64,000 nt of DNA from Eledone cirrhosa. Taxonomy: Eukaryota. The notes under the pieces were generated by a model. The model saw only the letters and a list, made by a program, of their open reading frames with translations, did not search any database and was not told where the DNA came from. The stretch lies in the NCBI GenBank assembly GCA_964016885.1, contig OZ024741.1:49724001-49788000 (forward strand). The letters run 5' to 3'. This document shows, piece after piece, positions 4,086 through 60,400 of this stretch; position 1 is the stretch's first letter, and each line of letters starts with the position of its first letter. The position numbers were made by a program, and so were the translations under genes.

Positions 4086-6450
4086 TTGGAGAGCCATTTT
4101 TTAAAATCATCATTTTACATTGATTTTTCATGCTGGCATGTGATGGGATATTTATGTTTGTAGCAGCAGTACTCTCTGGATTGCACTTGTGCTTCATATG
4201 GCATCAGCAACTGAGGGCTGATGTATTTTAAGAATTGTAAGTGCATAAAGATGGTTTCATATAGTATAGAAATAAGGTTAGAAAGACATAGGGAGATATA
4301 TTTACATATGACTATATAAAATTACAATTTATAGTCAGGATAATAATGATTACTGTTATATTTATTCAATCTATGCTAATATGTAAAGATTGATGTTTTA
4401 ATAATGATGAATTATGAACATTCATGTCTATTAATGTATAGACTAATATTTACAACTGACCAAATGTTACAATACAATATTGTAATCTGGTTATGTTTGT
4501 GATGTGTTAGAAAATGTTGTACACAAAGCCTTTGTTGACTGGATTAATTAAATATTGGTTTACATGTTTCTACTCTATGCTCATAATCCTCGCAAGCTTA
4601 CCCTACTACATTAGACAGGAAACAACACCTGTATTGCCACATCAATTATGTTAGAATTTCTTCTTTGGTATATTTTCTCTGCATTTATTTTTATCCTTTT
4701 CATGCCAGCTTCTGTTTAATTTTGTTGTTTATATTTTTATATATTATAACCAATCTCTCTCTCTCCTTCTACCACCCTCTGTCTTTTACAAAAAAAAGTC
4801 ATAATTCATTATAATCATCATGTTATGTTTGTTTTTCTGTGCTTGCGTGTGTTGGACTGGTTTATTCCAGTGCAGTAACTCAGTACATGTAGCTCATTGG
4901 CAGTTCTCATATACTTATTATGTGAACCAGGTAACATTCTTGTGTATGTCTTATAAAAAAAAAAATGAAGACAAAATGTTTAAGTACCTTTAAATGACAA
5001 CACTCTTGTCCTTTGGGACAATAGACCAATAATTAGAATAAAGGTTCCTGGTTCAATTTCTGATCTAAGAAACATTGTGCTGACAACTCTTCTAAGGTGA
5101 GGAAATAGTATGAAAATCAGAAACCCCAAAACATCATACTTTTCTTCCTTCTCATTCTCATATAGCAGAGAGGGCTCTTTAGTTGAAACAATAACTGACA
5201 AACTCTCTAGTGTCATGAAAAATGCACCCAGTACATCCTGTAATGTGGTTGGCAATATGAAGGACACCCAGCTGTAAAAATCATGCCAGAAAGGGTCAAG
5301 ATGACTTTTCAGTTGTTAACAGCATGACATCCTCTCTAGTGTTGGTGATCTATACATCTCTGTAAAGTGGTTGATGAATGGCAGGGCATCGAATCATAGA
5401 ATGCCTGCCAAACAATAGCTTGATGTCAGCCTTCCTCTCTCATTCAGCAATACTCCACTCATCCACCGAACCATTCTCATTTCTACTCTGCCCAGCTTTC
5501 TGAGGTCAAATCATGGTGATATCATTGGTCATTGTGTACATATATACACACACGTGCAGATACCCCCTCTTGCCACATATATATATACACATCAAACGCC
5601 ATTATTAATATACCTTTACACTGTAAATGTGGTTGGCATTAGGAAGGGCAAACCAAGCCAGAGCCAGTTCTGTCTAAGCAAGACACAATCATGTGATCTA
5701 ACTTGTCTCACAATGGGACAACACATCTAACCCATGGTAGTATGGGGAAAATTTGACGTTAAATGATGATGATGATATATAAACTTATACACATATACAT
5801 ACATGTGCCTAATACACATGTACACCACCACCCCCACATTTACCAACTAGTGTCACTAAAGTAGAGAAATGCAAGCTTGTGTTTTGAATTTCAGATACTC
5901 ATTATTATTTTTTTCATCTGAGCAATGTAAAATAAAATTCTTTGCTCAAGAACACAGCTTGCCACTAGAAATCGAACTCATGACCTTACAATCATTAACC
6001 AAACACCTTAACCATTAAGCCATGTAGCTACACACTCATCACACACTAGTTTAGAATAGGTACATCATAAAAAGTGATTAAAGCATAGGAAAGTGGATGT
6101 AAAAATGATGAAAATATATTGGGACAACCTATAAATAACACAGCTTTTTATACTTCTATTTTCAAAAATTAAGATAAATTGCACTTTTCAAAGCTTGCAC
6201 TAAAAATGAGGACAAGATGAATTTAATACCTGCTTTTATAGCAAGTTTATGCATGTGTTTATCCTCATCCCTCTGGCTTTTATTGCATGCAATTAAAAAA
6301 ATGTCTTATTTATGGGATTACTCTATATATATATAAAATTATTAATTAGAATATGTGTTAGTTTATCACCAACACTTTTGTATGCAGAGTAGAACACTCA
6401 ATGAAGTACACAAGTGGATCTGTTTACTCCAGAGTATAATTATAATTCAG

Positions 6451-6740
6451 AATCGTTGTTATATATATTTCAGTGATAACTGTTATGCAACAGTTAGCTA
6501 GAAGTTAAACAGAAGAACATAATGAAGAAATAAAACTTACTTCTGTTGTTTCAATTCATTGATATGCCCCGGGCTGATACTTGGTGTTGCTTTCTTTGAG
6601 AAAAGTGCATATCAATGAATTGAAACAACAGAAGTAAGTTTTATTTCTTCTTTATGTTTCTCTGTTTAACTTCTAGCTGTCTGATGAGGTTATAACTGTT
6701 GCATAATGGTTATCACCGAAATATATATAACACAGCGATT
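6451..6740. repeat. Fold-back inverted repeat (arms 6451-6567 and 6607-6740, ~39-nt loop), probably Penelope-like pseudo-LTR ends
   Basis: AAACTTACTTCTGTTGTTTCAATTCATTGATATGC is inverted as GCATATCAATGAATTGAAACAACAGAAGTAAGTTT; pairing extends to AATCG/CGATT. Confidence 0.9.
6676..6736 (+). ncRNA. Minimal type I hammerhead ribozyme motif (slightly degenerate copy)
   Basis: GCTGT-CTGATGA-GGTTATAACTGTT-gcat-AATGGTTATCACC-GAAA-TATATA-TA-(ac)-ACAGC: both catalytic core boxes, 13-bp stem II, palindromic stem III, stem I GCTGT/ACAGC. Confidence 0.7.
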
Positions 6741-7532
6741 ATAAATAAATGAAGGGAATTATAACCCATTGACTGGGTTGGGAGACCACATCTCACTCAA
6801 TATGTTTCATTTTGGGGGGATGGTTTGTACAGCTGGATGCCCTTCCTTACACCAACTACATTACATAGGGCACTGGTACATTTTTTTTCATGTCACTAGC
6901 ACTAAAGAAATGTCTGTCCTTTATATAACTAAAGTGTCTTCTCTACCCTGCTGTTACTGTTGGAATGTCAACCACTCTATGGTGTATAATAAATGCATTT
7001 TATCATCATACTAGAGAAGTCACATCAAGATCAAGTGTGAAAATAGAAAGGGTATTTGTAACTAAGGGAGAAAGAAATATATGTGGGTGAGATGAGTGAT
7101 GGGAAGGTATGGAAGGGAGAAAAGAGAGTGTGTAGAAGCTACATGTTAGTTGTTGGTAGAAGATTGATTAAATAAGAGCAGAAGTGTAAAGAGGAGAAAG
7201 ACTGATGGCCAGTTATAGAAAGCGACAGAGAGAGGACAGAGTATGGTGATTATCACTGATGTCTATCTATCTATCCTTATGGAGGGATGTCAATCTTCAA
7301 GATGCAATGGAAGCAACTCATCTAGAAAAGTATCCACTCAAAAATATAATTTATAGAGGGCACTGTGTGTTGGTTTTTGTTGTTTATTTATCTTGATAAA
7401 TATTTGGATTATCTGTCATTGGTAGATTAGCTGAAATGGTTGAGTGCCTCACTAAATTTCTGCAGCATTTTCATATTTTTACTTTAAACACTTGAGTTTA
7501 TCCTTCTGGAGTTAATAAACCAACTACTGTGA

Positions 7533-7943
7533 TTTACATTACTGTATATATGCTATTGTATTTTCACAGAAAAGGCTTTATCTAACATAATTACCTTATA
7601 TGATATTGAATCTCTGAGATTTTGATATTATTCAATTTGAGAACAATACCTTAACGTTGGTATGAGCGGCCAGTTATGACTGGTTTGAACAGAAAGAGGT
7701 GAGAAAATTCTGGCCGGTCATGGCCGGTTTAAATGCTAATGGGTTAAACTGGCTGTATCCAACCAACATTCTCTCACCTCTTTCTGTTTAAACTGGCTGT
7801 AACCAGCCACTCATACTAATGTTAAGGTATTGTTCTCAAAATAAATAATATCAAACTCTCATAGATTTGATATTATGGGAGGTAAAGCCTTTACTGTGAA
7901 AATATAATAGTAAATATAGTGTAATATAAATGTTAAAGGGTTA
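7533..7943. mobile_element. Two head-to-head copies of piggyBac-type MITE family D
   Basis: 7533-7747 is the reverse complement of family D; 7748-7943 is a forward copy ending AAATGTTAAAGGGTTA; they join at TTAA. Confidence 0.85.
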
Positions 7944-11755: not shown

Positions 11756-12217
11756 AATTCTGTAGAGTTGTTATTGGTCCTTCACATAAACTATACTTTC
11801 TTACATGAAAACTTTAAAGAATATTCTCTGATTAAATAAAATTATAATTTGAGTCTTTCAACAATATTCAAATTTTTGTTGCCTTGAATTCAATCAAATA
11901 GTTTTGGAACATGAATGTTAAAGAAATGTTTAGAATTCTTTATATTATGATAATATTACTTTACCAAAATATCAGATATGTCATACAATAGTGTGTGCTT
12001 TGTGTGTGGAAATATAATTCTCTGTAAGTATTTCAATGGGGGCATGCTATATTGATGTAGAATGAATGTGTGAAAGACAATATGAAATGCTTGAGGAAAA
12101 TTTCACTTATAAACTAGCTCTAATTTTTTTTTTATGTTTTCTAAATAATCATCAACAGCTTTTAATGATAACATTCTTCTAAGAGGAAGAGTATTCATTT
12201 ATAAAGTGTAAAAGGGT

Positions 12218-12838
12218 TGTGTAGGTGTCATGACAAAAAGTACCCAGTCCACACTGTAAAGTTGTCATGTAAGTGTCACAACAAAAAGCACCCAGTCCAC
12301 ACTGTAAAGTTGTCATGTAAGTGTCACAACAAAAAGCACCCTGTACTCACTGTAAAGTTGTCATGTAGGTGTCACAACAAAAAGCACCCAGTCCACACTG
12401 TAAAGTTGTCATGTAAGTGTCACAACAAAAAGCACCCTGTACTCACTGTAAAGTTGTCATGTAAGTGTCACAACAAAAAGCACCCTGTACTCACTGTAAA
12501 GTTGTCATGTAGGTGTCACAACAAAAAGCACCCAGTCCACACTGTAAAGTTGTCATGTAAGTGTCACAACAAAAAGCACCCAGTCCACACTGTAAAGTTG
12601 TCATGTAGGTGTCACAACAAAAAGCACCCAGTCCACACTGTAAAGTTGTCATGTAGGTGTCACAACAAAAAGCACCCAGTCCACACTGTAAAGTTGTCAT
12701 GTAGGTGTCACAACAAAAAGCACCCAGTCCACACTGTAAAGTTGTCATGTAGGTGTCACAACAAAAAGCACCCTGTACTCACTGTAAAGTTGTCATGTAG
12801 GTGTCACAACAAAAAGCACCCTGTACTCACTGTAAATG
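12218..12838 (+). repeat. 48-bp minisatellite, ~13 copies, inside a family C element that extends to 12986
   Basis: Unit TGTCATGTAGGTGTCACAACAAAAAGCACCCAGTCCACACTGTAAAGT; followed by GGTTGGCATTAAG...CCCATGCTAGCATAGAAAA...(GAT)n. Confidence 0.95.
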
Positions 12839-13989
12839 AGGTTGGCATTAAGCGGGAATCCAGGCTGGAATCAGTTATGTATGAGCAAGACATGGTAACC
12901 TACCTGACCTGGCATTCTTCACAACAGGACAACTCGTCCAACCCATGCTAGCATAGAAAATGGGTGCTAAATGGTGATGATGATGATAGCCTTCTCCTGC
13001 TACTGCAATGGCTCTTTGAATACTTTCTCTACTTTGACTCACTCCACCTACTCATCTCTTCTCCTCCTCCTGCCACCTTTATTGTGCCTCACCTCTCAGA
13101 TCATGCACTAATCCCTTTGCCTAGTTTTCCAGAACTGCAAACATTTTTTCTTGCAGACCTCATTAGATCACAACAAACTCACCAGTTCTCCTCTCGCTTC
13201 CTTTGATTAACTATGAATATAAATCAATATCATCATATATATATAAATATAAATCAATATATATATATATATATATAAACATCCCAATCAGATATGTAGA
13301 ATGCTGGATCAAACTAATATTTTCAAAGGCACTGATAATACACTCTTACTGATAAATATATATAGGGTAGTGTTATATTACATAACATTACACTCTTTTA
13401 TAATCAGCTGAGCTCTCAAAATAATTCATAAACTCTGTTCATGTAACATGAGCAGGGGCATGGCTATCTGTTTATGGCACTTTGGCTTAGTCTGCTCTAC
13501 TATAGCCTTGGGTTCATCAAAACCTTTTCAATGAAATTTGCTAGGCAGAAAATGTGCAGAATTTTCTATTCTTTCATATTAGACTTAATCCATTGCTTTT
13601 TTTAATACTCCTTTCTGGCCTTCTGGTAACTTTAGTGGAGTACATTCTGTTGCAGCATTCAGGCTAGATTTCTGGTCATCTGAAGATAACCTCCTCTGCC
13701 TTTCAGTTTAGAGACTGTAACTACCACATATACTGGAATATCTGCCAAGGAATATGTGAGCAAAAAATCAATGGTAAAATGAGAGGTTGGCTTTATATAC
13801 ACCATCTAAACAATGTGTTGATTAGCTGCCTTGGTTTATAAATGGGGTTTGGATTTTCACCTTTCTCAGACATAAAATAGGAAGGTTAGCTTATTCAGAT
13901 CAGCTTATATTCAAGTAAATAAATAGATACATACAATAAATCTTCACACATACATACTGTTACTTTCTCTTCAATATATTCGACAATGT

Positions 13990-40377: not shown

Positions 40378-41160
40378 CATCATCATCATCATCATTTTAC
40401 AGCAGCTTTTCCCTGCTTGCAAGGGTGGGACGGGTCTTATTCAGCACAGTATCTCTCCACTTGTCACGGTCCTTCGTCATCTCCACCGTGAGCTTCAGCG
40501 ATCTGAGGTCTGTTCTCACCACCTCCGCCCATGTTTTTCGTGGTCTACCTCTACCACGTCTTCCTTCAACTGACATTTCCTGGCACTTCTTCACCCATCG
40601 GTCATCCTCCATGCGCATCACATGTCCATACCACCTCAGTCTCCTCTCTCGCACACTACATTCTATCCCTCTCAGACACAGTTTCTCTCTCAACACATTT
40701 ATGCTGAGTCGTTCACGCACATTTATACTGCACATCCAATGGAGCATGTTTGCCTCATTTCTCTCCAGCCGTCGCATATCCTCTGCAGTTGCTGCCCATG
40801 TCTCACTACCATGCAGCATCGCGCTCCTCACACAGGCATCATATAACCGGCCTTTCGTATGCAGGGAGAAACCCTTCTCGTCAGCAGAGGAAGCAGCTCC
40901 CTAAACTTCTTCCAACCCGTCCTTATTCTAGATACTAAGGCCTCGGAACCCCCCCCCCCCTCCCATGCTAACCTGATCTCCTACGTACCCTATCCACCAC
41001 TTTTATAGCACCCGCCTCCATTTGAAAAATGTGTCTATCAATGCGACTTCTACTGTCTAATTTCCCTGTACATCTACTGCATACGTATTTCTCCCTACCT
41101 CTTAGTTTGCCTGCTATCCCACTACATCTCTTGTGTACCCAGGATCTGCATTGTGTGCAT
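40378..41160 (-). mobile_element. RTE LINE 3' fragment with a short tail
   Basis: SAMLHGSETWA...RERRLRWYGHVMRM...GRGRPRKTW...KTRPTLASREKLL*, directly followed by (ATG)n tail. Confidence 0.92.
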
Positions 41161-49249: not shown

Positions 49250-51320
49250 TCATCATCATCATCATCATCAGGTTTAGCGTCCGTGTTCCACGCTTGCATG
49301 GGTTTGGACGGGGGTTTTCCCACTTGAGGCAAGAGTGGTTGTCTTGCTCGCATAGGACTGTCTGGCAGGTTTTCTACAGCTGGATGCCCTTCCTAACACC
49401 AACCACATTTACAGTGTGGGGCTGGGAGGTTTTTACCGTGTTGCCTACACGGCCACATTACAGCGTGGACTGTCTGGCAGGTTTTCTACAGTTGGATGCC
49501 CTTCCTAACACCAGCCACATTTACAGTGTGGGGCTGGGAGGTTTTTACCGTGTTGCCTACACGGCCACATTACAGCGTGGACTGTCTGGCGGGTTTTCTA
49601 CAGCTGGATGCCCTTCCTAACACCAACCACATTTACAGTGTGGGGCTGGGAGGTTTTTACCGTGTTGCCTACACGGCCACATTACAGCGTGGACTGTCTG
49701 GCAGGTTTTCTACAGTTGGATGCCCTTCCTAACACCAGCCACATTTACAGTGTGGGGCTGGGAGGTTTTTACCGTGTTGCCTACACGGCCACATTACAGC
49801 GTGGACTGTCTGGCAGGTTTTCTACAGTTGGATGCCCTTCCTAACACCAGCCACATTTACAGTGTGGGGCTGGGAGGTTTTTACCGTGTTGCCTACACGG
49901 CCACATTACAGCGTGGACTGTCTGGCGGGTTTTCTACAGCTGGATGCCCTTCCTAACACCAACCACATTTACAGTGTGGGGCTGGGAGGTTTTTACCGTG
50001 TTGCCTACACGGCCACATTTACAGCGTGGACTGTGTGTTTTTTTGCCGTGACACCTACACGATCTCATTTGTTTCGGCCTGGATGTTGTGGGACCAACAT
50101 AGCTTTACATTGAAAGGGGCGGTGTGGATGGGGTGGAGGTGGTGGGACGGGGGGGGGGGGGGGGTTGATAGAGATGCCTACTGACTATAGTAGGTTTTTA
50201 CTTTGTATTTAGGTAAGGCGGGTCTTCTCTATTACTGAGTACCGCCAAAGGTCTCGGTCCAGTGACATTGTCTTGGAGAGGTGTAAGCGTGTGAGGTCGG
50301 AATTTATCAGCTCGTCCCATGTTTTTCTGGGTCTGCCTACTCCGTGGCTACCGTCTATCTTTATTGCCCTGCACTTTGTTATACAGCTGTCGTCTTTCAT
50401 GCGCATCACGTGACCGTACCAACGTAGCCTTCTCTCGAGTAAACAACATCTGATCCCTCTTATTTCTAATTTTTTCCTTAGTTCGTTTATGCTTTGCCGT
50501 TCACGTATATTACTATTGCACATCCAGCGGAGCATGCAAGCTTCGTTCCTCTCTAGTCTGCGTATATCCTCTGCACACAATGCCCAGGTCTCACTGCCAT
50601 GCAGCATTGCTGTTCGTATGCAGGCATCGTATAACCTGCCTTTCATTTTTAGGGAGAACCCTCTAGCGGCTAATAGTGGTATAAGCTCTCTGAACTTTTT
50701 CCATCCAGTTCTGACTCTAGCTACTGTACTTTCAGAGCACCCTCCCCCACTGCTGATTTTGTCACCCAGGTAACGGAAGCTGTCCACTATTTCTATAGAA
50801 CCCTCTGCGCAGTTGAAGGAGCTAGTATTTTGTGGGCACTTGCTGCTACTTATTGCACCAGAGCACCGGCCACATGTAAAATCTATGTTCTTAGTTAGCT
50901 TACCTGTGATCCCACTACATCTTTTATGCACCCATACTTTGCATTTGGGACATAAAATGGAGTTTCTACCTATGCCTTTCCTACACACTGAGCATGGCCA
51001 TTTCCCAGATGGGACTGCCGCCTTATTTTCTTTCCTACAAACTAGAACTTTAGTCTTAGCCAGGTTAATTTTAAGGCCTTTTGATTCTAGGCCGTGCTTC
51101 CATGTTTGGAATTTCTTCTCTAGTTCGGTCATTGATTCAGCTATGAGCGTTAGATCATCTGCGTATAGGAGTTCCCATGGGCAGCCGGTCTTGAACTCCT
51201 CTGTTATAGCCTGAAGGGCAATAATAAATAGTAGGGGGCTAAGAACAGAGCCCTGATGGACACCAACTTTTACGCTAAACTCTTCACTATATTCGTTGTT
51301 AATTCTAACCTTACTGACTG

Positions 51321-51325
<5 letters not shown>
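49247..51325 (-). mobile_element. Young 5'-truncated RTE-clade LINE (RT C-terminal half plus long 3' UTR)
   Basis: Stop-free frame 51325-50209: VGVHQGSVLSPLLF...LLYADDL...FRYLG...LHGSETW...RLRWYGHVMRM...GRPRKTW; 3' UTR is a family C module ending in (GAT)n. Confidence 0.95.
49355..50033. repeat. 112-bp tandem repeat, 6 near-identical copies, in the LINE 3' UTR
   Basis: Unit starts GGACTGTCTGGCAGGTTTTCTACAG; ORF-track starts recur every 112 nt. Confidence 0.95.
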
Positions 51326-51351
<26 letters not shown>

Positions 51352-51443
51352 TATGTGTGTGTGTGTATGTATATCATAATCATTTAATATCCATTTGTGT
51401 GTGTATCTATGTGTAAAATTAAATGAAACTCTGTATTTTTCAG

Positions 51444-52006
51444 CTTTCTTCTCATCTCTATGATGGGACCTACAATGTATCTGTTCTTGCGAAAAACAGT
51501 ATCAGTAGACAAAAAGCCTCCATGACTGTGAAGTCATTTTATCCAGTGTTAAAAGTTGAGCTGAGCACCATATATGGCTTTGCTAATGAATCGGTGCATA
51601 TTCCTTTCTTTGTGCATGGTGGCATTAATATCTTGATTGATATCAATTTTGGAGATGGCAAAGAAAGATCATTTACAAGTGATGATTTGAATCAATTACC
51701 TGAATACTACTACTATGGACCTAATACTTACACTGATTCACTGCATGATATTATCTTGAAACATCTCTATACTACTCCTGGACAATATCAACTTGAACTG
51801 AGTGCCTACAACAAAATATCAAGAGTTAAACGTAAAGTCACCGTGGTGATTGAAGAAGCCATTACTGGTTTCAGGATTGAAACAAATTCTTCACGAGTTA
51901 TCTCATTGGATGAGTCTGTAACTGTATCTGCCTATGTTGACACTGGTAATAACCTTACCTTTAGTTGGGAATGTTCTGATGATTGCTACATAGTCAATTT
52001 AAACAG
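51444..52006 (+). CDS. Polycystin-1-like gene exon (563 nt, phase 0-2), about two PKD domains
   Basis: Acceptor TATTTTTCAG, donor AG|GTAAGA; motifs GTYNVSVLAKNSIS, INFGDG, HLYTTPGQYQLELSAYNKIS, TGNNLTFSW. Confidence 0.93.
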
Positions 52007-52967
52007 GTAAGAGCTACTAACATCTGCTTTCGTTAACCTTTCAAATGTGTAATTGAATAAAACATTTCTTTCTAGATGACTGATGTTCAACATGAGTTTC
52101 TATAGGGATTATTGGTGATGGTGGTTGTGGTGGTGGTGGTGGTGGCAGTGGTGGGTAGTGATGGGGTGGTTGTGGTGGTGACGGGGGGTACTTTTTACAA
52201 AGGTGTTATATATGTTTGTTTTTATCTAAGTAGAGCTGCCAAATGAAAAAGACTTAAAACGAAATAGAAATGCCAGGTCAGGTGACCATGTTTTGCTCAT
52301 ATAGAACTGCTTTTGGCTTGGTTTCTACAGCTGGCTACCCTTCCTGATGCCAACCACATTTACAGTGTGGGCTGGGTGCTTTTTGTTGTGACACCTATAT
52401 GAAGTGTTTTGCTCAAGAACACAACCCAGGAATCGAACCCACAACATAATGATTGTCCAACACCCTTACCACTAAGCCACACACCTCCACAATCAGTGAT
52501 TAGGAGCTGTTATTACCTATTAAGTGAACATCTTTTCATGGATGCATTTTCATGTGTTTATATCCATATTTATTAGCAGCACTCTAGTAGTGCAAAGTAA
52601 CTAGTCCAGATTGAAGTAGAAGAATCTTAATTTTTCTGAAGTAATTTGGTCTTTGTTAGGAATGATTTTATAGAAAAAAAAATGATTTGTTGCTTAAAAT
52701 ATATAAATGTAACCAAAATAGTAATGTTATTGTGCTTTATTATACCTACATTTTCTAATGCATAAAAGAATATAGATAGAAAATAAATTGCAAGCAAGGA
52801 AGAACAGAATAGAAAATATATTTTGTTACTGTATTGATAGCAATTCAGTGACAGTAGAAAAAATTCTTCTAATTGTATGATTACAAGTACACAGCTTCAA
52901 TGTCTTTGTGAGTCTCTTGGGAAAGTATTTAACATGTGGTGCTGTAAATACATATATACATATACAC

Positions 52968-55562: not shown

Positions 55563-56267
55563 GTAAGAAGAAAAGTTACTGTTCAGTTATTTCCTGAAGC
55601 ATTCTTAGAATGACAAAACTGATGCAAATGTGTGTGTATGTGTATGTTCATTTTATTAAGGGTAAATAGTGAGTCTAGTTACTCTGGAGTTTGCATGTTT
55701 TATAGACAGGCGAAACTTCTGAGTAAAGCCTCCACTAAAGGCACCTAAGGGCTAGGTGGTGATGTTAAACTGGACAATGGATTAAATCTATCATATAAGT
55801 TGGCCAGAATGGAATTTAAATTCAGAAAGAAACAAATACTGCAAGGCATTTCATTTAACACTTTAACAATCCTACCAAGCTGTTGCCCTGGACTGGTACA
55901 TTATTTTATCTACCAAAGGATAAAAATCAAAGTTGACCTCAGTGGGATTTGAATTTAGAAAACTGGAACAAATACTACAAGGCATTTTGTCATACACACT
56001 AATGACTTTGTCAGTTTGATGCCATAACATCAGAACATCAGAAAAAAATCAATAACATTTCTAATTCTAACCATTTAGTAGAAGCATTTTAATAGTTTTA
56101 ACGTGAGACAAGTTGGATAGACTACTAGATCTTGTCTCAGTATAAGAAACAATTATCAATTCTGATTTAGATCTGCTTTACCTCACATTGCTAATTTATT
56201 TTGAACTACATGACTGCTACAGCTTTCTAAATCCCAGATTTCTTGATCATCATATTATGATCATTAT

Positions 56268-57433
56268 ATCGAAAGGAGGGCTGGGGATGCCATGGCTAAT
56301 GATGCGTAAACACGCATTAAGGCTACGGCACCTCTACGTATTCCTCACCGGACAACCGGTGTGGGCCTCGTTTGTGAGACGAACCTTTCCCAGACTCGTC
56401 TCACTCACCGAGCTGCAATCCTGGGTCAAGCAAAGACCGAGAAAACTGGGCGCCTGGCACACTGAGTGTGCCCAGGCGCTCACCGCCCTCTGGCAGGCGG
56501 ATCCGGTTATCAGTGGAGACTCCACCGCAACATTCTATAGAGGACTGGTACGCAGCAGGTGCGACGACGCCCTTAGAGAAGCCCTAGACATGGAGGAGGA
56601 CGAACTGGCCAGCCTGTTCGGTAGGACATTCAGCCCGGGACCTATGGACAACTTCCAGAAGTCCCTGGCCTGGCAGTGCTACCGAGGGGCTCTACCCGTT
56701 CGAGAAAAGCTCTACAGACACGGGCGCCCGGGTAGGGACCCCACCAAAAAGATCTGTCCCAGATGCGTGTGCGACGAGGAAACCGTTGCACACGCATTGG
56801 TACACTGCTCGGGCGTAGCCGATCTGTGGGGCTATGTCGAACAACTGCTGTCAAAGGCGGGACCGATCCAGTTGACCACCGAGTCTATTGTAATGATCAA
56901 GCTGCCTCCCCCCTTCAAAAATGAAGGAGAGGCGGTGTTTCTGTGCGTAATAGCCATGGTGAAAGAAGTTGTATGGTGGACGCGTCTGAAAGGACTGAGG
57001 TCAGGCACCTTTCTCGCTGGCCAACAACTGGTCCGTTTCTTCCGATATCATTTCGGAAGAAGGATCAGGATGGAGAGAGAGGTGCTCCACCCCAGTCGTT
57101 TCTATGAAAGGTGGGTGAAAGTGGCGAGAATGGCCCGTGTGAATGGGCCTTCTCTTTACATAAGCCTGTAGGTGTAAAGGAGGAAGGAATGAGGGAGCAC
57201 CTCCTCTCTGTGCTCCTGAGGAGAAGGGTTGCTCACTTTTTTCGGGGGTGTGTGCGACCCCCCAAGGCGCCTCCTCTCTATTGAGGATTTTGTTATAATT
57301 TTATTTTTTGTTATATTTTATTTTATTTTTATATATTGTTATTGCCTCCTCCCTATTGAGGACGCCTTGTTTTGTAAACTGCCCCCATTGTACTTGTCCC
57401 ACTTTTGATGCCCTGGTGGCAAATAAAAGAAAC
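56268..57433 (+). mobile_element. 5'-truncated Tx1/L1-clade LINE (ORF2 C-terminus with zf-RVT zinc knuckle, plus 3' UTR)
   Basis: GC-rich island; GGLGMP...W..YRGALPVREKL...CPRCVCDEETVAHALVHC; stop at 57171; AATAAA at 57422. Confidence 0.9.
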
Positions 57434-57620: not shown

Positions 57621-58329
57621 ATATATACAAATATAGTTTATTTGATGAAAAATTTCAGCTGTGATATTTTCATTGATATGCCTTTTCAAATAATCATCTG
57701 ACTGAAGCAATACAGCATCAGTCTGCATTTGGATTCCTTTAAACTCTTATATTTCTCTGATTTTGATATAATAAGTACTGAATGTAGACTAACTATATAA
57801 TGTAATGATTTAATGGATAATAACTTCATTTTATTTTCTTACACTGCTAATGAGATATATATAAACAAAATATACAAGACTATGATTTGCTAAAGAGGTA
57901 TGGGTAAGGTGAAACTATGTCTGGAGTTGTCTCTCATGCTTGCCAGAAGTGTGAAAATAATATTTTTTCTTCACTGCCTATTTAGTTTTAGTTAACTGAA
58001 AAGTTTATAGGCTGACCAAGATACTCTCATGGAATGACCAAATGGGGTTTATTTTTCAACATAGTCTCTGGAAAGAAACAATGCAGTTATTAATAAGAAA
58101 AGTTGAAATTAATACATGCAAGATTTCACAGCTTTTAGCATCACTCCTTCATAGTCAGCCTAAGAACTTTTCAGCTGGCCCTCATATGTGTGTGTGTATA
58201 TATATTTATATATATATATAATAATCATCATAATGTCTATTTTCAATGCGTGCATGAGTTAGGAACATTGTCATTAACTTTATTTTATATTTTGAAATAA
58301 ATGTTTCATAACCTTTTTGTTTATTTTAG

Positions 58330-58557
58330 AGGGAATTTATTCCATCAAACTGACTGCCAGAAACCCCTTGGGAAATGTAACTGTAGACATGGCAGAACTG
58401 TTTTATGTCCAGTATCCACCTGAAGATGTCAGGATTAAAATGGCAAATACTAATTACTTGTTTGGCTATAACATCACCTTCCAAGGTTCTCTCGGATCAG
58501 GGACAAATGTTTCTTTTGACTGGGACTTAGGAGACCAAACAGAATTAATAAATGCAG
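58330..58557 (+). CDS. Polycystin-1-like gene exon (228 nt, phase 1-1), last exon detected in the window
   Basis: Acceptor TTTATTTTAG, donor G|GTAAAA; encodes (E)GIYSIKLTARNPLG...VQYPP...GSGTNVSFDWDLGD. Confidence 0.92.
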
Positions 58558-60400
58558 GTAAAAAACTTATCTATATTTATAACTTTTTTTTCCATTTACT
58601 TATTTGAGAAAGTGGAGTAATATCTAGTCCATAGTTTTCATCAGTTTTTCTATTCTTTCAGATAAGGATATGTGAGTTGAGATAGTGTAGACAGATATTT
58701 ATTTAATCAAGTTTTTGCAGCTTTCTTGTTTTACAGAAAAACATAAGGGGCGAAGGGTCAGTGCATGCGTTATAGAATCTTGAGTTGATCAATTGCGTCG
58801 GTTGAAGCAAGCAAAATTTTGGCTGCTTACTAAAACGTAGACACACACACATACACACAAACACACGGCAGCTTTGGGGCAAGCAGAATTTTGACTGCTT
58901 ACTAAATAGACACATAAAAAGATAACACACACACACACACTAGATAACACTACATGCTGCTTTGACCGGGAGAGTCATTTAGAGGGAATGGGGGGGGGGG
59001 GGGGGGGGTAAGGCTGCACAGCCCCACTTTCTGCCATGGCGATTGGACTGCATGCCCTGCTTTCCAGGTTACCCTTCGCCACTGAAAAACACATGTGGGA
59101 AGTGAGTTCCAGCAAGACAATGCAATTCTGTACAAGATTTAGACAAAAATTATTAGTACAGTGTGTGATGAGAAAACATGCATGTTAATTTATATAATTT
59201 GATAATCTTTCAGCAGTCCATTACATAATCTGTTTGCTCTTCTATGTTTAGTATATGCTACATGTGTAGGTAATATGAAAATAGAGGGACAAAAGTGTTA
59301 CCAGAACTGTTAGAATAGGAAGAGGCTCTAAACTTACACATTATTGTAACTATGACATTGTGTATTTAAAACATCCTGCTCAGCTTCCTTCAGTCTAGAT
59401 ACATATTAGAAAAAGGTAATTAGAACTAGAAGCAGTATCTGGCCACAAAACACCGCTTTTGTAGTTATACACTATCAGTAAAACAAGGAGATGAAAACGT
59501 TTTAATGCTAACATAAAATAATTATTTCTACTTTTAGCACAAGGCCAGCAATTACCCAGTACATTACTGGTACTTTATTTTATGCTAACATAAAATAATA
59601 TTTGTAAATAAATGATTATTTTAAAACATAAATATGAAGAACTGTGCTACTATTCAAAAGGTTGACCACACCCAGTCAATGCAATAATATTGTATCGCTG
59701 CTCTTCATTGTTATATTAAAGTGTAATCTACAATGTCAACAATAAAAAATATGTGGCCATCTTAGATATGAGAGCAGTAGTTTGTATTTTTGAGCCCTGT
59801 GAAGTCTTTACAATTGTCCTGGCTGAAATAGTTAAATTCTTGCAATAATTATGTGAGCAGAATGTCACAGTCTCTTTTAAATTTGAAATGCTTAAAATAT
59901 GAATCTTCTGGAAATCATTGCTACCATAAGCATATTGCTTCTATTATTTTGTGGGGTGCAGACATTCATAATTTTCTGACAAAAATGACAAAATTTTCTG
60001 TCAACAATGTTTTGGAGGTGCACCTGCACCCCATGCATCCCCAGCAATATGCCACTGATTGCTATAGACAGTAAACTGTAACATATGTAATAATGAGGAT
60101 CTTTATATATATATATATATATATATTTATATTGAGGTTTGCTTAAGAGAAATTGTATCATGATGTTTCTCTTTGAATGAAGTTTTAATGTAATAAAATG
60201 TTTCTAAATTGTCAGATCCTCTGTGAGGATCTGACAATTTTGGTTTTCATTGAGGGAGAAAAAAAAAGGTTAAATTCTAGTGGAAATATTACTGAGGTTG
60301 GATTTTAAAAATATAGAAGCTCTTAGGTAACATAACTTTATATGGTGATGTAGGATAGAGTATATTACAAACTAAAGATATATGCTGGCATGATCAGTTA

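Follow-up and report, generated by a model that had tools for sequence, protein, structure and literature searches.

Results

A Head-to-Head Fold-Back between Distant PKD-Domain Exons

The 64,000 nucleotides of Eledone cirrhosa DNA analysed here (hereafter the window) contain a fold-back in which two truncated copies of a repeat face each other. A first-pass annotation had placed this element at 6451-6740; that interval holds the core region, but the element is larger and extends left to about 6345 and right to about 6774. Its parts are listed with the basis of each delimitation in brackets.

6324-6335, no strand: (TA)6 run adjoining the long 3' end and probably the microsatellite targeted (TA runs border family 3' ends)
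6345-6595, minus strand: left arm, a 5'-truncated 3' end of a Penelope-like element (PLE; alignment to a real copy, L038)
6345-6446, minus strand: "tail" of about 95 nt, overlooked in the first-pass annotation and confined to copies with a long 3' end (family 3' ends)
6455-6496, minus strand: left hammerhead remnant, with inner stem II, GAA, ATATATAT, A and ACAAC
6594-6595, no strand: head-to-head junction, a 2-nt overlap between the arms (alignment)
6594-6774, plus strand: right arm, a 5'-truncated PLE 3' end without the tail (alignment, family 3' ends)
6676-6736, plus strand: type I hammerhead motif with a 5-bp stem I, CUGAUGA and a stem II mismatched at pair 4
6676-6680, plus strand: right-arm stem I 5' strand, GCTGT (sequence and alignment)
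6681-6687, plus strand: right-arm CTGATGA core (sequence and alignment)
6688-6717, plus strand: right-arm stem II, 30 nt (sequence and alignment)
6718-6720, plus strand: right-arm GAA (sequence and alignment)
6721-6728, plus strand: right-arm ATATATAT (sequence and alignment)
6729, plus strand: right-arm A17 (sequence and alignment)
6730-6731, plus strand: right-arm AC duplication at the predicted cut site, foreign to the family motif (family comparison)
6732-6736, plus strand: right-arm ACAGC, 3' of the extra AC (sequence and alignment)

The right-arm motif is completed by GAA and a palindromic AUAUAUAU helix III, and cleavage is predicted after A6729. The 13-bp stem II of the initial description exists, but as three pairs, a mismatch and then nine pairs. 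In the left arm the core and the 5' strand of stem I are deleted, with 15 nt missing between 6497 and 6496. What remains are the direct junction and the inner stem II, just as had been read from the letters; a public contig, possibly from the assembled sample, crosses this deletion with zero differences. This arm begins about 161 nt upstream of the predicted cut site, continues as far as the long 3' end and has a second internal deletion of about 40 nt. The right arm has lost 20 nt after 6603 and ends 43 nt past the predicted cut site, so that the tail is present on the left arm only.

The fold-back is real: the arms are 93% complementary, both over 80 nt (6488-6567/6607-6686) and over 40 nt (6457-6496/6693-6732), and a 301-nt region folds into a single long hairpin (-162.9 kcal/mol, z -26). 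By itself, the right arm folds no better than shuffled sequences (z -1.1). Rfam miRNA models match the window arm at scores short of the gathering threshold, an effect of the long hairpin.

How secure is the motif? The bare core pattern occurs once in the window against 1.94 expected, which is not significant. The significance of the motif comes from the family, because the sequence obtained by merging the two arms, without the AC, has 72 exact matches in the genome against none for a reversed control. The merged motif of the first-pass annotation, including its type I topology and palindromic helix III, is accordingly that of a real family. The window copy is likely dead, as had been suspected, with a left arm lacking the core, a right arm carrying the AC duplication and arms that mask each other in the long hairpin.

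PKD-domain exons lie on the plus strand within the window, at 51423-52007 and 58296-58604, and outside it, at G000:C2:49617847 (about 112 kb upstream of the locus) and at 49797730 (just downstream of the window); they likely belong to a polycystin-1-like gene, or to tandem paralogues, spanning the region. No nearer host exon was found among 65 open frames scanned, which yielded these two PKD exons and transposon frames. From the position and strand of the exons, it is plausible that the fold-back is intronic and in sense orientation to the host PKD gene.

Other repeats are present in the window. The endonuclease end of another Hydra-type PLE family occupies 2-526 on the minus strand (38% identical over 138 aa to the ORF of L131, a sister element described below), and a second, unrelated fold-back lies at 7532-7931 (142 nt at 78%, 60 nt at 83%). 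Copies of a very abundant short repeat, presumably SINE-like, are found at 5228-5287, 5626-5650 and 6817-6876; summed contig depth near 6818-6871 is about 180,000, as opposed to 10 in unique flanks. Non-LTR retrotransposon frames are present at 50212-51501 (minus strand, RT with PHD finger), 40400-40900 (minus strand, a related C-terminal piece) and 56146-57168 (plus strand, zf-RVT), and tandem arrays at 12205-12948 and 49356-50181 give rise to repetitive open frames.

A Dispersed Family with a Conserved Hammerhead Motif

The region is a dispersed repeat, with 1825 first-look candidates in the 3.0-Gb genome, 40 of which were scored. A sample independent of the ribozyme was drawn with a 33-nt anchor located downstream of it (286 matches, control 0); 90 loci among the first 100 matches listed provided 93 anchored copies. 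Motif geometry is ungapped in 50 of the 93. Among these 50, 26 have T-A as their inner stem I pair, 14 have C-G and 10 something else; position 17 is A in 37, T in 13 and never G, and stem II pair 4, for which a G had been guessed, is C opposite C in 40. The order CUGANGA/GAA/UH holds for the family and fails in the window copy, owing to the AC duplication and the lost left-arm core.

Covariation in stems I and II had been put forward as a check. Within the family, 41 of the 50 copies were compared, after removal of eight with a truncated 5' half and one duplicate; 91% of cells pair, and a two-sided change is seen in 1 of 19 pairs. Within-family covariation is thin, because this single changed pair represents one subfamily split and not 14 events. 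Across families the picture differs. CTGATGA followed by GAAATATATATA 22-32 nt on has 26,119 genomic matches (control 12), and CTGAAGA in the same arrangement has 13,873 (control 18); together, these exact patterns comprise 39,992 related motifs (control 30), although the AT helix is required by the search pattern, and its universality among the PLE motifs here therefore does not follow. Sixty loci, the first 30 listed for each pattern, include at least five stem I types. At least four of five stem I pairs are kept in 56 of the 60, compared with 1192 of 2620 cross-type pairings, and sliding the register gives means of 2.1-3.1 pairs. Stem II swaps at pair 3 (G-C 34, T-A 23), pair 5 (A-T 42, G-C 11) and pair 6 (T-A 32, C-G 23), whereas pair 4 stays C·C in 57 of the 60. 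Across families, both helix I and helix II covary.

The proposed Rfam check gave a different outcome: hammerhead models had no match at E<=10 to either the window arm or one intact copy. Annotation relying on Rfam would thus overlook about 40,000 motifs of this type in the genome.

Motifs Assign the Parent to the Hydra Clade of PLEs

Walking upstream from the family 3' end, a decayed endonuclease is reached at 1.6-2 kb. This remnant has a CxCx5C linker, YIG, CxxC and CxH, and in at least nine places (L091-L094, L096, L294, L301, L303 and L315) it is found upstream of, and on one strand with, the family 3' end. The endonuclease piece has 28,358 first-look candidates in the genome, 150 of them scored. 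L329, with a decayed RT-endonuclease ORF, aligns over 1126 nt at 78% identity with L327, a locus bearing the family hammerhead. No unbroken copy from RT through ribozyme was found among the family copies examined, and the link is made by overlap.

Sister families preserve the complete arrangement. In L131, an 847-aa frame contains YRDD, DKT and YIG, an N-terminal RRMRWR is encoded in another frame, and a direct repeat lies on both sides. Direct pseudo-LTRs surround a Hydra-type ORF in L131 as well as in L333, L334 and L335; in each of the latter three, two intact same-strand motifs 3.7-4.1 kb apart flank the ORF, and two of these loci have a third, inverted motif upstream. Three sister families are thus represented by full-length copies in which the ORF lies between two same-strand hammerheads. 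L333 (682-5585 of G000:C1:18349200-18355400) is a very young full-length sister PLE, with inverted and direct pseudo-LTRs (99.7% identical), three identical hammerheads and an ORF with one frameshift. The L131 ORF has long low-complexity, frame-keeping insertions between the RT thumb and the endonuclease, at about residues 445-575 and 645-700, which resemble in-frame inserts described in rotifer PLEs.

These elements show the layout of an EN+ PLE. RT shares a single ORF with a C-terminal GIY-YIG domain (L329 and the remnants; sister L131). Pseudo-LTRs are seen in the sisters, and the family itself has inverted pairs; a tandem pseudo-LTR copy was found only in sisters and not in the family. The optional 3' tail is present at one end, at about 95 nt rather than 30-40. 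Features of the Hydra clade are likewise found: DKT in L131, L329 and L333, with an RWR variant of RWK in L131 and L333; CxCx5C, and CxxC and CxH flanking E and N, in the translations of L069, L061, L329 and L131; absence of CCHH, as judged by eye; and insertion into (TA)n, with 49 of 93 copies flagged as having a TA run at the 3' end and further runs lying a few nucleotides beyond the reference 3' end. Pfam had no match for the 90-aa endonuclease piece or the 847-aa sister ORF, and PDB none for the sister ORF, by sequence or by a 70-sequence profile. Homologues match weakly, GIY-YIG above the cut-off (P0001) and RVT_1 below it (P0045); the best named homologues of the sister ORF come from a bivalve and an argonaut. 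Judged from sequence, then, the family is the 3' end (pseudo-LTR) of a protein-coding Hydra-clade PLE, the clade being assigned by motifs. The early link to PLE pseudo-LTRs and an inverted terminal copy is upheld. What had been called a non-coding retroelement family derives from a coding RT/GIY-YIG element, of which it is the truncated 3' end.

Two 3' Ends and One Tail per Pair

The 3' ends of the 93 anchored copies are bimodal: 54 lie 50-69 nt past the predicted cut site and 33 lie 140-150 nt past it, the latter being the reference limit for 3'-end mapping. They mostly run into TA runs, and the difference between long and short ends is the tail. Since both positions lie past the ribozyme, the RNA that was reverse transcribed must have been uncut there.

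Head-to-head pairs account for 32 of 87 anchor-picked loci and for 6 of 30 loci with intact motifs. Among 200 motifs listed, 39 of 48 close neighbour pairs are head to head, four are tail to tail and five run in the same direction. Most copies are short and non-coding. Together with the many head-to-head pairs, this might suggest a non-autonomous, retrozyme- or MITE-like unit that spreads through ribozyme-cut circular RNA, as the first-pass annotation had inclined to believe. Such a unit is contradicted on several counts, and we consider it highly improbable. The 5' ends are scattered, with the longest copies extending to the endonuclease, each fold-back has a junction of its own, and the copies terminate 60 or 155 nt beyond the cut site rather than exactly there. 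Tandem copies, whose presence had been suggested as a check, are missing, in that none of 30 intact-motif loci has a same-strand neighbour within 1.5 kb, and retrozymes are described as tandem repeats of 150-450 bp (PMC7229834), unlike this family.

If the pairs derive from a PLE, how do two inverted arms arise at one site? We assembled 132 distinct loci from the repeat, merged-motif and anchor searches, including some found with the fold-back itself as query, and 45 of these are head to head. Thirty-seven pairs combine a long with a short 3' end, eight are short and short, and none is long and long, whereas independent arms would give 21.8, 15.6 and 7.6, respectively (p 3e-6). The window follows this one-tail rule. 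Of the 37 long-short pairs, 17 have a tail-less arm that exceeds its partner in the 5' direction by more than 25 nt, 14 have a tailed arm longer by that margin, and six have neither. Each arm of those 17 pairs consequently has sequence that its partner lacks, because the tail-less arm extends further 5' and the other has the tail. Later deletions at the central palindrome could mimic this asymmetry.

One tail per pair suggests priming from both ends of a DNA break, and the pair counts speak for two primings, each at its own DNA end and with its own start site. Alternatively, a single strand of the same element may fold back on a palindrome and be copied. Self-priming of this kind, on an antisense template, has been proposed for rotifer PLEs, in which a tail on one inverted pseudo-LTR was already described (PMC3846280). 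It would account for those junctions that lie on near-palindromes, for the six of 37 pairs that are symmetric within 25 nt, and for the similarity of the arms, which are on average 90% identical, compared with 87% for the median other copy, and are more alike in 26 of 29 pairs. A copied arm cannot exceed its template, yet this is what the 17 pairs with a longer tail-less arm and a tailed partner would demand; moreover, junctions are mostly direct or short overlaps. We regard self-priming as unlikely, while giving it more weight than any other rival considered here, and prefer priming at both ends of the break. Homogenisation of the arms was also considered and rejected: the similarity between arms matched or exceeded that to the best other copy in just 3 of 29 pairs.

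A Predicted Dimeric Hammerhead

Two intact family motifs have a double hammerhead as their co-folding optimum, at -30.6 kcal/mol, compared with -23.6 kcal/mol for two monomers; the gain is 7 kcal/mol, and closing helix III in a monomer costs 2.8 kcal/mol. The co-fold has the architecture of the dimer model put forward by Cervera and de la Pena (2014, PMC4209133). In full-length transcripts, cleavage by the family hammerhead is predicted to require a dimer, so that the earlier suggestion of dimeric cleavage stands as a prediction. With the AC duplication of the window copy, the predicted dimer has three unpaired nucleotides at the cut site.

Do genomic copies record cleavage? The 5' ends of 19 of the 93 anchored copies lie within 10 nt of the cut site, compared with 5-13% in the next 20-nt windows. 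Of the 19, nine begin within the AT run and three represent internal deletions. We do not count this mild enrichment as evidence for cleavage, because microhomology to (TA)n explains it. None of the 93 copies has its 5' end exactly at the predicted cut site, and the genome therefore shows no cleavage footprint. Truncated 5' ends cluster a second time at an ATATG near-palindrome, some 165-185 nt upstream of the predicted cut site, where TA runs are often the joined sequence.

Conceivably, the motif is kept mainly as a signal for protein binding or folding, self-cleavage being weak or dispensable. The missing footprint would fit, as would conservation of the non-catalytic C·C mismatch. So would published accounts in which cleavage of an anole PLE RNA needed protein, was dispensable for insertion in vitro and left no reads ending at the cut site (PMC11167929, in the experiments described), and in which minimal PLE hammerheads were poor cutters in vitro (PMC4209133). 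Against such a role, the motif varies at just those positions that catalysis leaves free (N7 as T or A, H17 as A or T, with no G among the 50), and stem I, which spans the cut site, covaries, as fits selection for cleavage. We consider a predominantly non-catalytic role improbable and retain cleavage by the dimer as the working prediction.

Discussion

Taken together, we are confident that the locus consists of two head-to-head, 5'-truncated 3' ends of a Hydra-clade PLE, a likely dead product whose hammerhead is predicted to act only as a dimer. The features described for Hydra-clade PLEs by Craig et al. (2021, PMC8557442) are closely matched: a C-terminal GIY-YIG domain, RW(K/R), DKT, the CxCx5C linker, CxxC and CxH around E and N, (TA)n targets, a hammerhead near the 3' end and an inverted 5'-truncated copy (Penelope-13_HM). 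That set includes Hydra-1_Obim of Octopus bimaculoides, the motif of which differs from ours, and, among the Hydra hammerheads of its table S2, in the part available, none has a AUAUAUAU helix III or the 30-nt C·C stem II. The elements here also differ in their 3' UTR (1-1.6 kb), in units of 3.7-4.1 kb as opposed to under about 3 kb, in the tail (about 95 nt, not 30-40) and in the RWR of L131 and L333, where RWK is given for Hydra PLEs.

The minimal PLE hammerheads of Cervera and de la Pena (2014, PMC4209133) are alike in being type I motifs in pseudo-LTRs, with a long helix II, a 5-bp helix I, a palindromic helix III and a dimer architecture, and in occurring mostly as solo truncated copies, with opposite-strand pairs 100-700 bp apart. 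Poseidon, a PLE from Anolis carolinensis (Frangieh et al., 2024, PMC11167929), likewise has a tail bracketed by two internal RT start sites; its targets are AT rich and its RNA template is uncut, and both DNA strands are cut and extended in vitro. Poseidon belongs to another clade, its ORF begins within the hammerhead rather than about 170-270 nt downstream, as here, and its start sites are not assigned one per arm in the passages that describe them. The non-LTR retrozymes of metazoans (Cervera and de la Pena, 2020, PMC7229834) share a type I hammerhead, many copies and low GC; as described there they are non-coding head-to-tail repeats of 150-450 bp, whereas our family has a coding parent and lacks short tandem copies.

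How might such an element insert? We envision a scenario whereby two same-sense hammerheads in a full-length transcript would pair via AUAUAUAU and swap their stem I strands, perhaps with help from the element protein. The RT/endonuclease would cut (TA)n DNA, and reverse transcription would begin internally in the RNA, roughly 60 or 155 nt downstream of the ribozyme, on a template uncut at that point. Most likely, both ends of the break would be primed, one per start site, and both cDNAs would stop early and then be joined 5' to 5' by microhomology. The motifs in the window cannot form a dimer, because they face opposite ways, and read-through RNA at this locus would form a long hairpin concealing the remaining damaged motif.

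Hammerheads, inverted pseudo-LTRs and tails of PLEs have been published before; the family adds its scale, a C·C mismatch and an AU helix that are both conserved, and the one-tail rule (one arm tailed in 37 of 45 pairs, both in none), of which the last is new. Neither the two-ended model nor an octopus hammerhead count was found in the literature covered, which is mostly open access. We tentatively propose two-ended PLE integration, with long and short start sites, together with a hitherto unrecognised AUAUAUAU/C·C hammerhead class of at least 40,000 copies, common to the Hydra-type families of this genome.

The window locus itself is an ordinary dead repeat. The family data bear on how PLEs make tailed inverted ends and on what PLE hammerheads do. 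The one-tail rule and the two-way asymmetry of the arms amount to a testable insertion model, and the young full-length sisters, such as L333, provide natural dimer constructs. If the proposal is true, some copies, diverged by less than 1%, would be ready substrates for testing the roles of PLE ribozymes. The numerous head-to-head pairs may constitute a source of double-stranded RNA wherever they are transcribed.
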